A stretch of DNA of 64,000 bases from an uncultured Clostridia bacterium (GCA_948934525.1 CAQZSK010000001.1:96453-160452); one strand, 5' to 3'; positions 46,228 through 58,312 are shown, counted from the first letter of the stretch. Notes: generated by a model from the sequence alone, not told the origin. Numbers and translations: made by a program.

Positions 46228-48046
46228 TTAAGGAAATTCTAATATACTTAAATTAAAATATAGCTCATTAGTTCTTTCTTTATCTTGTCATTGAGGTTTA
46301 AATTCTAATATATTTATATTAAAACTTACTTGGTAATGCAATAAGTGATATAGCACAAATCTTTAAATTCTAATATATTTACATTAAAACTCTATAAGGT
46401 AGACAAAGACAACCACAAAATTTCACTCTTTAAATTCTAATATATTTACATTAAAACGTTAACAATAGTATTATAATCATAAATAACGAATAACTTTAAA
46501 TTCTAATATATTTACATTAAAACATAAAGCTGATGAATATATGAATAATATTAACAACTTTAAATTCTAATATATTTACATTAAAACTGAAAGAAATAGC
46601 AAAAATTGGAACTCTTACATTCTTTAAATTCTAATATATTTACATTAAAACAAAAATTATGAAAAAAGCTAATGGAATAACTTTGCGCCCTTAAAATTCT
46701 AATATATTTACATTAAAACCCTGTCAAATATGGGTCAAACCATCTACCACCAGCATTCTTAAAATTCTAATATATTTACATTAAAACTATTCACCAGATG
46801 TAAGGGATGAAGCATTTTGGAGCTTAAAATTCTAATATATTTACATTAAAACACTTAAATCTTGCACTATCTGATACCCCTTTATAATCTTAAAATTCTA
46901 ATATATTTACATTAAAACTTTACTAGATGGCTTACCACGTTATCAAGATATTTTAACTTAAAATTCTAATATATTTACATTAAAACCTACACAAGTATTA
47001 CTTAAACACCATTTATCAACCTTAAAATTCTAATATATTTACATTAAAACAAAAGAAGTAAAATATGACAATTTATCCGATATGTTTGACTTAAAATTCT
47101 AATATATTTACATTAAAACGTCTTCAAAGATTTTACTTGCTTTTTTGTCTTCTTCCTTAAAATTCTAATATATTTACATTAAAACGCTCTTATAGTTCTA
47201 GTCTATCTGTTCGAGTTGGAAACTTAAAATTCTAATATATTTACATTAAAACCTATACTCTTCAATATTATAAATTTTTGTTTTATTTTTCTTAAAATTC
47301 TAATATATTTACATTAAAACAAAATTTAGTGATGGAACATTAATTTGTCGTAAAAACTTAAAATTCTAATATATTTACATTAAAACACTGTCAAAAATAG
47401 ACATAAGAATCATACCTTCTTCCTTAAAATTCTAATATATTTACATTAAAACGGCTCTAGCCTTCAAATAAATTCCGATACACCTCACTTAAAATTCTAA
47501 TATATTTACATTAAAACGACCAGCCTTTTCTAAAAGCTAAGAAACCAACAACAGCCTTAAAATTCTAATATATTTACATTAAAACAATTGGGAATTATCA
47601 TTTTTTCTCCTTTTATATTGAACTTAAAATTCTAATATATTTACATTAAAACTTAAATCATTTCTAATAATGAAGATAATATCTTCCTTAAAATTCTAAT
47701 ATATTTACATTAAAACGAAAATATTGTAGAACATTATTGGATGCGTGAAATCTTAAAATTCTAATATATTTACATTAAAACTGCCAGACAAGTTAAAAGA
47801 TAAATTGAATAACAATACTTAAAATTCTAATATATTTACATTAAAACTGCATCACCTAATAATTCTAAAGTTGCTATAGTAACCTTAAAATTCTAATATA
47901 TTTACATTAAAACGGTGTTGGGTCAAATTTTCCATCAATATAATCTCCGCTTAAAATTCTAATATATTTACATTAAAACAGTTCTTCCAGAATGTGCAAA
48001 AGTTGATGAGGATAATCTTAAAATTCTAATATATTTACATTAAAAC
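46228..48046 (-). CRISPR. CRISPR array 1: about 28 repeats of 30 nt. Plus-strand unit CTT(A/T)AAATTCTAATATATTTACATTAAAAC. Spacers about 35-37 nt. Degenerate repeats lie at the low-coordinate end, so leader and transcription are inferred on the minus side (48047-48229).
   Basis: Regular 65-67 nt periodicity read directly. The first two repeats (46228, 46296) are degenerate. The last perfect repeat is 48017-48046. No cas gene in the window. Confidence 0.9.
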
Positions 48047-48229
48047 AGGTGCCTTCAAACACCTTGTATTTTCCAAATTATATCACTTATTTTCGTCGAT
48101 GTAACCAATTTTGCATATTTTTATTATCAAAATTTTATCATTTTTCTAAAAAGCTTGCAATAAGAGGTTTAAAAATTCGTCGACCTCCCAGTGTTTTTGC
48201 ACTATCATAGGTCGACGAACTATAATTTT

Positions 48230-49255
48230 TTATTTTACCTCTTTAATTGCCTTTTCTGCATAGCTATTATTTACTATTTTGTCATAGTCCCCTTCTTTTT
48301 CTAATTCTCCTGCTTCTTTCATAACAGTTTGAAGTAAGTCAAAAGATTCTTTTTTCAAAATAGGGTCACTTTTCCAAGCGTCAATGTCCATATAACTTTG
48401 AACAGCTGCTTCAAGCATTTTTACATCTGTATCTGGGAAAAATTCTTTAATTGCTTCTACAATTTCTGCTGCCGTATGTTCTTTTACCCATTTTTCTCCT
48501 TTATAAATTGCATTTGTAAATCCTTGGATAACATCTGAGTTTTGTTCCATATAACTTTTCTTAGCGAAATATGCTGTATATGGTATTTCTCCTGATGCTT
48601 CTCCTACTGATGCTACTACATATCCTTTTCCTGCCGCTTCTGTCATAGAAGCTGTTGGCTCAAATAAAGTTACATATTCAGCATCTCCACCAGCAAAAGC
48701 TCCTGCCATTAAGTCGAATTTAATACTATCATCTAACACTAAATCCTTTTGTGGATTTAATCCATTTTTCTTAAGTACATATTCAAAAGTCATATAAGGA
48801 ACTCCACCCTTTCTACCTGAGATAACAGTTTTTCCTTTTAAATCTTGCCAACTAAATTTGTCTGTCTTTTCCTTACTAACTAAGAAAGAACCATCTTTTT
48901 GTGTCATTTGTGCAAATACTTGTGTATGATCTTCTTTTCCTTCGTTATATACATATATTGAAGCCTCTGGTCCAGCAAATCCAATATCGCTTTGACCTGA
49001 TAACACTGCTGTCATTACTTTATCTGCTCCCTGACCAGTTGTTAATTCTATATCCAATCCTTCTTCTGCAAAGTAACCATTTTTAATTGCCACATATTGT
49101 GGTGCATAAAACACGGAACGTGTTACTTCATTGACACGAATTGTTTTTAATTCTGCTGTGTCTTCTTTTTTATTTAGTAGTATGCAAGTTGTCATAACAG
49201 CTGCTACTACTGCAATAACTAAAATAATAATAAGATATTTTTTCAAGTTTTTCAT
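48230..49255 (-). CDS. ABC transporter substrate-binding lipoprotein, NMT1/SsuA/TauA family (sulfonate/nitrate/HMP-type)
   Basis: 341 aa. N-terminal lipoprotein-like signal with Cys. NMT1-family fold signature. Confidence 0.7.
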   Translation of the reverse strand: MKNLKKYLIIILVIAVVAAVMTTCILLNKKEDTAELKTIRVNEVTRSVFYAPQYVAIKNGYFAEEGLDIELTTGQGADKVMTAVLSGQSDIGFAGPEASIYVYNEGKEDHTQVFAQMTQKDGSFLVSKEKTDKFSWQDLKGKTVISGRKGGVPYMTFEYVLKKNGLNPQKDLVLDDSIKFDLMAGAFAGGDAEYVTLFEPTASMTEAAGKGYVVASVGEASGEIPYTAYFAKKSYMEQNSDVIQGFTNAIYKGEKWVKEHTAAEIVEAIKEFFPDTDVKMLEAAVQSYMDIDAWKSDPILKKESFDLLQTVMKEAGELEKEGDYDKIVNNSYAEKAIKEVK

Positions 49256-56115: not shown

Positions 56116-56174
56116 ATTTGTCCTCCTTTATTTTTTTATTTTGATATATTTTATACAGTTCTGATACAAAGGGT

Positions 56175-58312
56175 TAATATTTTTCTAATATATTTAAATT
56201 ATAATTTTTTCCCTCCATTACTTTAAAAAGACAACTAAAACCTTTAAATTCTAATATATTTAAATTATAATCATATCAACGTAAAGATAATGTTCTTCGT
56301 TATCCTCTTTAAATTCTAATATATTTAAATTATAATCTGAGTCTGAAATATATTCATAAGCCAAAAATAGTGTCTTTAAATTCTAATATATTTAAATTAT
56401 AATTTTTAACAAAATTAAATTAAAAGAAAAATACCAAACTTTAAATTCTAATATATTTAAATTATAATAAAGAACCTTATATGTGTTTTAACTTTAGTCC
56501 AGTCTTTAAATTCTAATATATTTAAATTATAATCTACCTTCATCATCTACAGATAAGGCAAGAGGGATCTTTAAATTCTAATATATTTAAATTATAATCT
56601 TAAGACTGTTGCTCTTGTTGCTGTTGCCTTGTATCTTTAAATTCTAATATACTTAAATTATAATGATTTTTACAAAAAGAATTATATAGATAATAAAGAT
56701 GCTTTAAATTCTAATATACTTAAATTATAATCGAAAATGGTTCTTTCAAAACTGGAATATCAAAGCACTTTAAATTCTAATATACTTAAATTATAATATG
56801 ATAATCATAATGAAAACAATGACACCGAATAGGCTTTAAATTCTAATATATTTAAATTATAATCTATGTGTACATATACTTCTGTCATATATAATGTAGT
56901 ACTTTAAATTCTAATATATTTAAATTATAATAAAATAATTCTATAAAAATTGCACATACTAATTTCTTTAAATTCTAATATATTTAAATTATAATATTAC
57001 CTTCTACTCAATATAATGCATGGGCTAAAGTCTTTAAATTCTAATATATTTAAATTATAATTATCAGGGCTTACAGAGTTTGACTTCGATTGAAAATCTT
57101 TAAATTCTAATATATTTAAATTATAATTGAATATCATAAATAGTATTTACAACTAAATGTTTTAACTTTAAATTCTAATATATTTAAATTATAATAAGAA
57201 CTATGCAAGCAGTATGGATGGGGTTATAAAGTCTTTAAATTCTAATATATTTAAATTATAATATTATGTTTTAAGTTTAATTAATACATATCGTAGATTC
57301 TTTAAATTCTAATATATTTAAATTATAATTAATATGATGTTGATTACTGGTGCTTTAGTTGATAAAACTTTAAATTCTAATATATTTAAATTATAATCAC
57401 ATTTATTTTACATAATGTGATACAATAAAAGAAACTTTAAATTCTAATATATTTAAATTATAATCGAACTACCGCAAAGTGCTTGTTGAACAACAGAATA
57501 CTTTAAATTCTAATATATTTAAATTATAATAAATCATTGAAAGTATGGGATTTGGACTAATTTACGCCTTTAAATTCTAATATATTTAAATTATAATTCA
57601 TCTGCAAATAATGATGCCTCTGCTCTATCTTCCTTTAAATTCTAATATATTTAAATTATAATATCTTGAATTTCGTCAAATTCATTTATTTCTAACTTCT
57701 TTAAATTCTAATATATTTAAATTATAATGATATGATGCTTCCAGTTTGTTGGGCTGCATTTGTCTTTAAATTCTAATATATTTAAATTATAATCGAAATT
57801 TCACAACAGAGGAAACAGCGCAAGCATATTGTCTTTAAATTCTAATATATTTAAATTATAATAATGTTGAAAAATGAAATGAGAAAAGTTTTAGGAACTT
57901 TAAATTCTAATATATTTAAATTATAATTGATTTCTATAAGAAAAAATATATAGATAATAAGACTTTAAATTCTAATATATTTAAATTATAATGGTATGTC
58001 TTACTGGTTTGGTTTTTTGCATAATTCTTTAAATTCTAATATATTTAAATTATAATGATACAGGAACAGAAAGCTTTACAGAAAAAGAAAACTTTAAATT
58101 CTAATATATTTAAATTATAATTAAAAGAAAAGTTGGGGATAAAGGAAATAAAGCTTTCTTTAAATTCTAATATATTTAAATTATAATAATGGCTCTAGCC
58201 TTCAAATAAATTCCGATACGCCTCACTTTAAATTCTAATATATTTAAATTATAATCCCTGTTGTAATCTTGAATATATTTCTCCGTTGTTTCTTTAAATT
58301 CTAATATATTTT
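56175..58312 (-). CRISPR. CRISPR array 2: about 31 full repeats of 30 nt plus degenerate terminal copies. Plus-strand unit CTTTAAATTCTAATATATTTAAATTATAAT, sharing its first 21 nt with array 1. Leader inferred at 58313-58440, transcription on the minus strand.
   Basis: About 66-nt periodicity. Variant repeats (TATACTTAAATT) cluster at 56640-56800, towards the trailer. A truncated repeat sits at 58292-58312 next to an AT-rich hairpin-containing leader. Confidence 0.9.

Follow-up and report, generated by a model that had tools for sequence, protein, structure and literature searches.

A near-identical spacer in two CRISPR arrays of an uncultured Clostridia bacterium points to a probable repeated capture of one protospacer

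How does a spacer come to be present twice, in almost the same form, in two different CRISPR arrays of one genome? The question is raised by a 64,000-nucleotide stretch of DNA from an uncultured Clostridia bacterium (GCA_948934525.1 CAQZSK010000001.1:96453-160452), called here the window, in which positions are counted from its first letter and in which two long arrays, array 1 and array 2, lie in the same orientation. A first-pass annotation had reported a near-identical spacer in both arrays, in the same orientation and differing by one single-nucleotide polymorphism (SNP) and a 3-nt offset, and had taken it as a sign of repeated or primed acquisition. The likeness was confirmed in our analysis, and we consider it probable, from the sequence features described below, that the two spacers are independent captures of one protospacer, defined by its protospacer-adjacent motif (PAM) and sampled from two alleles of one invader.

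The copy in array 1, spacer A1_19, occupies positions 47453-47487 and is the ninth from the leader (35 nt; plus strand, GGCTCTAGCCTTCAAATAAATTCCGATACACCTCA; CRISPR RNA (crRNA) sense, TGAGGTGTATCGGAATTTATTTGAAGGCTAGAGCC). The copy in array 2, spacer A2_31, occupies positions 58188-58225 and is the second from the leader-side end (38 nt; plus strand, AATGGCTCTAGCCTTCAAATAAATTCCGATACGCCTCA; crRNA sense, TGAGGCGTATCGGAATTTATTTGAAGGCTAGAGCCATT). Both are encoded on the minus strand. Both spacers are real, although the limits first assigned to them (47455-47490 and 58189-58226) were 1-3 nt off and took in the first C of the next repeat. When aligned in the same orientation, they were identical at 34 of 35 positions, with one A/G difference on the plus strand, and A2_31 had three additional nucleotides, AAT at the left on the plus strand, which correspond to ATT at the 3' end in the crRNA sense.

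As a null for spacer similarity, 150 composition-preserving shuffles were made and all 1830 spacer pairs were aligned in each of them. The local alignment score of A1_19 and A2_31 was 33, while the best score in any shuffle set was 20, so the likeness is not due to chance; it also lies in the spacers, outside the repeats, and is not a repeat artefact, as had been stated before. Chance, low complexity or an artefact of assembly can hardly account for the pair. The spacers are AT-rich, and a strain comparison by exact-protein look-up gave a single 7.7-kb Logan contig (L003), from a short-read assembly of the same strain, which breaks at the arrays; but besides the score itself, the SNP, the 3-nt difference and the different repeat types around the two copies show that neither is a collapsed or duplicated assembly segment.

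Both arrays consist of regularly spaced, near-identical repeats and unique spacers. Array 1 (46230-48046, minus strand) contains 28 repeats of 30 nt and 27 spacers, and array 2 (56176-58321, minus strand) contains 33 repeat units and 32 spacers. The repeat period is 64-69 nt; the 59 spacers measure 34-39 nt, a range found in each array, with a mean of 36.2 nt in array 1 and 36.1 nt in array 2. In the crRNA orientation the repeat of array 1 is GTTTTAATGTAAATATATTAGAATTTTAAG (plus strand, CTTAAAATTCTAATATATTTACATTAAAAC) and that of array 2 is ATTATAATTTAAATATATTAGAATTTAAAG (plus strand, CTTTAAATTCTAATATATTTAAATTATAAT), and 26 of their 30 positions agree. Little or no folding is predicted for the repeats, and Rfam returned no CRISPR repeat family for the arrays, only spurious hairpin matches.

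Three independent lines place the predicted leader of both arrays on the high-coordinate side, with transcription from the minus strand: a conserved leader in array 1, decay of the repeats at the low-coordinate end, and the flanks of the protospacers given below. The AT-rich leader of array 1 (48047-48229, minus strand, 183 nt) is conserved in syntenic loci of two other uncultured Clostridia metagenome-assembled genomes (L004 and L005), in which an array is found at the same nrdD/prs and ABC-transporter locus and the flanking genes are ~83-95% identical. A promoter scan detected in this leader a promoter-like site, GTTACA-17-TATAAT with TG in front, on the minus strand at 48105-48077. At the other, old end of array 1 there are a degenerate repeat at 46230 and older variant repeats (plus strand CTTTAAA...) at 46296-46651. 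At repeat position 4 the 21 leader-nearest repeats have the same derived base, A, as expected if each new repeat copies the first one. The low-coordinate end of array 2 is also degenerate, with a decayed unit at 56176 adjoining cysK.

Within array 2, three successive repeats at 56635-56797 have C instead of T at repeat position 18, and the repeats before and after them are canonical. Plain copying of the first repeat at every acquisition does not predict such a run, for which a reversion is suggested, or else recombination or insertion inside the array.

With the orientation in hand, the two spacers can be compared end by end. In the crRNA orientation both begin with TGAGG(T/C)GTATC... at the same PAM-proximal, leader-facing base, and only the PAM-distal end differs. 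A1_19 is bounded on both sides by exact repeats of the array 1 type and A2_31 by exact repeats of the array 2 type, and these types differ at the base that abuts the spacer and also 4 nt from it, to the left and to the right. None of the neighbouring spacers is common to the two sites. The single difference between the spacers is a transition at spacer position 6, which is a third codon position and synonymous (ACA/ACG, Thr) in the only stop-free plus-strand frame, NGSSLQINSDTP; a synonymous SNP is what natural alleles would be expected to show. The common PAM-proximal start, the variable PAM-distal end, the array-specific flanking repeats and the lack of common neighbours together favour two captures.

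The same boundaries bear on another possible origin, a single acquisition, of which recombination or gene conversion between the similar repeats put a copy into the other array, where one base was then substituted and 3 nt at the spacer-repeat junction were duplicated. The two arrays offer a suitable substrate, with repeats that are 26/30 identical, in direct orientation and 10 kb apart; the extra ATT does repeat the start of the adjacent repeat, and surveys ascribe the overlap of spacers within one genome partly to duplication (PMC12814883). However, the flanks are purely array-specific, down to the base next to the spacer on one side and the fourth base on the other, so that at each end conversion would have to stop no more than 0-3 nt from the spacer; two extra mutations would be required, and no change in length is seen at any other repeat or junction in 61 units. 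Recombination between arrays would be recognized by repeat variants and/or neighbouring spacers that had moved together with a spacer of equal length, whereas here no adjoining spacer is shared and the lengths are 35 and 38 nt. We regard this origin as improbable.

A second pair of related spacers, both in array 2, shows the allelic signature more strongly. A2_8 (56665-56701, minus strand; plus-strand reading DFYKKNYIDNKD) lies about where the first-pass annotation had placed it, while A2_27 (57928-57962, minus strand; plus-strand reading DFYKKKYIDNK) had been set ~10 nt away, at 57918-57953. They are identical at 27 of 32 positions in an ungapped alignment (score 22), a score reached in none of the 150 shuffle sets. 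The five mismatches in the 32-nt block, at positions 5, 8, 11, 14 and 17, are consecutive third codon positions of DFYKK(N/K)YIDNK. Because they fall on every third base, the two spacers derive from diverged alleles of one protein-coding gene, and the codon periodicity supports the earlier suggestion that variants of a single region are targeted. At the PAM-proximal end the two are shifted by 3 nt relative to each other; they were therefore captured at different PAMs. A degenerate pattern for the peptide gave no match in IMG/VR. Its one metagenome match (L020) was rejected as chance, as it lies in a low-complexity open reading frame (ORF) of 1633 amino acids (aa) on a contig of 18.6% GC.

Several spacers match mobile genetic elements. 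Relatives of the prophage next to array 2 (59042-64000, described below) were retrieved from IMG/VR with its endolysin, and all spacers were compared with the retrieved contigs by BLAST. On contigs L008 and L009 we found matches for A2_15 (37/38) and A2_21 (33/37), and on L010 for A2_12 (30/34), A1_14 (28/36) and A1_16 (26/38). In a whole-array BLAST search of INPHARED there was one clear match, A2_29 with Fusobacterium phage Funu2 (34/35; L001, 32504-32538); the same spacer also matches phage phiBB (32/35; L002) and Ruminococcus phage phiRM10 (28/30), where the target gene is annotated as Rad52/22-family. The segment targeted by A2_29 is conserved among phages of very different hosts, and such matches are therefore unreliable for host assignment.

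Including three matches in the resident prophage, ten protospacer matches of nine spacers were available, and their 5' flanks in the crRNA orientation were CCT, CCT, CCC, CTT, CCA, TCA, CCT, CCT, CAC and CGT. On the plus strand GG was present at +2/+3 in five of the nine flanks tested, compared with a background of 2.9% from the local composition (p ~2e-6). Protospacers of both arrays have the 5'-CCN/YCN flank of clostridial type I-B systems. In Clostridioides difficile type I-B, CCN is the PAM of adaptation and YCN that of interference, and 96% of new plasmid-derived spacers have CCN (PMC8406132). From the PAM and the geometry of the arrays, type I-B is the best-fitting model for the present system. 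After the orientations of the loci were aligned, seven of the eight protospacers mapped on the prophage family were judged to lie on the same strand, which, as the kind of strand bias that goes with primed adaptation, is suggestive only.

The target of the shared spacer was looked for in several collections. An exact 22-mer had no match in IMG/VR, and a codon-degenerate 32-mer had none in IMG/VR, the GTDB representative genomes or the JGI metagenomes. BLAST against INPHARED phages and PLSDB plasmids gave only chance matches (E at least 2), and the target was found neither by the whole-array search of phages, nor by the search of plasmids with 61 spacers, nor within the window. A shorter degenerate pattern had one IMG/VR match (L019), which was dismissed as chance; it is GC-rich and the match does not extend. 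The annotation had spoken of an actively targeted invader, and in view of these searches of the collections this can be taken only as a supposition.

We propose that the pair arose as follows. Arrays 1 and 2 would be two chromosomal arrays of one repeat family, with minus-strand transcription entering at the high-coordinate end, and would have been filled by a type I-B-like adaptation module that chooses protospacers beside 5'-CCN. Two integrations would have sampled the same CCN-defined protospacer from allelic variants of one mobile element, probably in a phage gene read on the plus strand as ...GSSLQINSDTP.... Recognition of the PAM would set the leader-proximal 5' end of the spacer, so that A1_19 and A2_31 start at the same base, and loose trimming at the PAM-distal end, where spacers here vary from 34 to 39 nt, would give 35 nt in one case and 38 nt in the other. 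The extra ATT would then come from the protospacer, and the capture would have been carried out by Cas1-Cas2-Cas4 encoded elsewhere. A single adaptation machinery serving both arrays, as suggested in the annotation, is plausible because the repeats are 26/30 identical, the spacer lengths match and the CCN/YCN flank is the same. As to the mode of acquisition, the boundary and flank evidence favours the repeated acquisition named there, while priming is not separable from naive re-sampling of a hot protospacer.

Several points weigh against two captures. With the protospacer found in no collection searched, the origin of the ATT in a target and the presence of a CCN in front of the target site are unproven. 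The array 2 repeat that comes next also opens with the three bases of the extra ATT (ATT, then ATTATAAT...); a spacer start of the ATT type occurs by chance in ~5% of spacers, and the three nucleotides may be repeat-derived. A scan of the 30 larger ORFs of the 64-kb window detected no Cas family, either beside the arrays or elsewhere, and thus neither the type I-B signature genes (cas8b, cas7, cas5, cas3 and cas6) nor the adaptation genes cas1, cas2 and cas4. Finally, array 2 has no leader recognisable today by leader alignment, and its competence for acquisition is unproven. Models in which integration slips by offset nicks, on the leader or the spacer side, were also considered by reasoning, but an ATT at the PAM-distal junction follows from none of these.

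The ATT also brings in the possibility of self-capture from CRISPR DNA, in which a 38-nt prespacer, made of the 35-nt spacer and the ATT of the following array 2 type repeat, was integrated again. The extension and the first bases of the array 2 repeat agree exactly, otherwise a ~5% chance event, and in E. coli the chromosomal regions at CRISPR arrays are hot spots of acquisition. On the other hand, the triplet in front of a spacer within an array is the repeat end, AAG, and not CCN; in C. difficile the triplet at the end of the repeat does not work as a PAM (PMC8406132). Without a PAM, a start at the exact first base of the spacer, about 1 register in 66, is left unexplained, and no donor copy with array 2 repeats is present in the window. 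Self-capture therefore seems very improbable, and two captures of one protospacer are still the preferred reading.

Another characteristic that bears on this history is the leader-side end of array 2. By the orientation given above A2_31 is indeed the second spacer from that end, but the conclusion drawn earlier that it is recent is weakened, as positions in two different arrays are not comparable as ages, and as the flank of array 2 is unlike the leader of array 1 and only half of the terminal repeat is present. This terminal unit (58292-58321, minus strand) is repeat-like only over 58292-58311, and its leader-proximal 10 nt diverge. The flank beyond it (58322-58443) was not homologous to the array 1 leader in an alignment and contains a long, self-complementary hairpin at 58326-58383; a hairpin in this flank gave a spurious Rfam match to a microRNA family. 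A 31-nt likeness between this flank and the leader of L004 was discarded, being in the wrong orientation. A promoter-like site, TTGACT-17-TAGAAT, is present at 58326-58298 and could still drive transcription. A 75-aa ORF next to array 2 had no relatives in IMG/VR. Prophage-like genes start ~120 nt further on.

Array 2 may have lost its native leader through insertion of the prophage or through another rearrangement. A more specific version, that the prophage (~58.4-64 kb and beyond) inserted at, or recombined with, the junction of the array 2 leader and first repeat, left half a repeat and cut the array off from its native leader, seems unlikely. If it were true, a phage would have decapitated a host CRISPR array with spacers against its own phage family, the resident copy would be tolerated on account of the seed or PAM mismatches of all three spacers that match it, and A2_31 would be among the last spacers taken up by array 2 before its adaptation was silenced.

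The prophage end (59042-64000, minus strand) contains a small conserved ORF, an endolysin, a holin, a tail fibre gene and tail genes (PHROGs) and runs off the window. Its relatives in IMG/VR are homologous at both the nucleotide and the protein level, with an endolysin up to 89% identical, whereas a 200-aa prophage protein had no relatives in IMG/VR. The self-targeting of this prophage, which was to be checked according to the annotation, was found for three other spacers, in imperfect form, but not for the shared spacer. A2_19 matches positions 59247-59283 (minus strand, 32/37, PAM CCT, seed mismatches at 4 and 7), A1_24 matches the holin gene at 61242-61277 (minus strand, 29/36, PAM CAC, seed mismatches at 2, 4, 5 and 8), and A1_10 matches 62068-62103 (plus strand, 30/36, PAM CGT, mismatch at position 2). 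The identity is thus 81-86%, all three have seed mismatches (at 2, 4, 5, 7 or 8) and two of the three have a PAM other than CCN, whereas in the matches to non-resident relatives of the prophage, such as that of A2_15 (37/38), the seed is intact. The resident prophage looks like a tolerated, escape-type lysogen in a phage family that is repeatedly targeted by the arrays.

The prophage end also contains an inverted mini-array, mini-array 3 (59344-59505, plus strand), with three repeat units of the host type, the outer two degenerate, and two 36-nt spacers; it is located between the small conserved phage ORF and the endolysin terminator. Two phage contigs of IMG/VR, L008 and L009, are homologous to the segment 59042-59536 and have decayed repeat-like units at the position of mini-array 3. 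As these relatives share the stretch with the mini-array, it is phage-borne. No matches of its spacers were found in the phage and IMG/VR relatives or in the plasmid searches. Like phage-borne mini-arrays, it has host-type repeats, adjoins prophage lysis genes and has no cas genes of its own; unlike them, it has only three units, two of them degenerate. Solitary repeat units carried by phages are known as RNA anti-CRISPR repeat mimics. Mini-array 3 could be a phage mini-array for competition between phages, or such a repeat mimic.

The positions of both long arrays are conserved across species of the lineage, that of array 1 (46230-48229) between nrdD/prs and the ABC transporter and that of array 2 (56116-58321) next to cysK. 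An array with more than 65 repeats is found in L007 at the same cysK-side locus as array 2. No spacers were common to the arrays of the different species (L004, L005 and L007), and no cas genes were in view in the 8-kb pieces of the related loci L004-L007. Arrays 1 and 2 are cas-distal, and the cas genes may be located elsewhere in the genome.

Between the arrays lie genes for the ABC transporter, an 842-aa protein, a GH25-LysM protein and cysK, and upstream of them nrdD, prs and a block resembling a conjugative element. The 842-aa ORF (51248-53776, minus strand) had only a weak match to an IS630-type helix-turn-helix and is absent from the syntenic locus L007. The upstream block (~15800-39000, minus strand) has large ORFs, including those of a 2082-aa protein, a TraG/VirB4-like ATPase (33767-35746), a glucosaminidase-domain protein and an amidase. 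Several of its proteins had no Pfam match, and no spacer of the window matches it. It looks like an integrated conjugative element.

The type I-B system of C. difficile is among the closest known counterparts. Several of its arrays lie far from the cas genes or within prophages, and the array leaders are conserved (Boudry et al., 2015, PMC4556805; Maikova et al., 2021, PMC8406132); prophage arrays in this species are described by Hargreaves et al. (2014), as cited in PMC4556805. As there, scattered arrays of one repeat family lie away from cas genes, with repeats of ~30 nt, spacers of ~36-37 nt, a CCN/YCN PAM and conserved leaders with sigma-A type promoters; arrays inside prophages rely on the Cas proteins of the host, and spacers of several arrays match one phage family. 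A mismatch at position 6 is likewise treated as tolerated: according to work cited in PMC4556805, this position is unpaired in type I effector complexes and is counted as an allowed mismatch, so either spacer of the shared pair would be predicted to recognise either allele. The present system differs in its repeat sequence, in its host, an uncultured Clostridia bacterium of the mouse-gut type, in the lack of a cas operon in the window and in an array 2 without a conserved leader.

Independent acquisitions of the same protospacer have been seen experimentally in Legionella pneumophila, and natural Legionella arrays contain an older, imperfect spacer together with a newer, matching one against a single element, which was read as natural priming (Rao et al., 2016, PMC5071653). 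Those systems are of types I-C and I-F and have a known target, LME-1, whereas here the target was not found. The allele difference, moreover, falls here on the non-pairing position 6, so that the older spacer would still interfere and would not be a primer compromised by escape.

In a broader survey, some spacer overlap was present in 11.9% of the arrays whose genome contains a further array with the same consensus repeat (PMC12814883), and sharing of spacers between arrays is an ordinary, already documented feature of CRISPR immunity. That survey mostly ascribes the overlap to duplication or splitting of arrays; in our case a single spacer is shared, and the two copies differ in length and in the repeat variants around them, as re-acquisition would suggest. 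What is known of CRISPR adaptation is unchanged by the shared spacer. It is a clean natural example in which re-acquisition may be told from duplication by sequence alone, the signs being a PAM-proximal boundary in common, a PAM-distal end that varies, flanking repeats specific to each array and differences at third codon positions. For the arrays of these uncultured gut Clostridia, the analysis defines an orientation, a CCN/YCN PAM and a targeted phage family, which are useful for linking the hosts to their phages.

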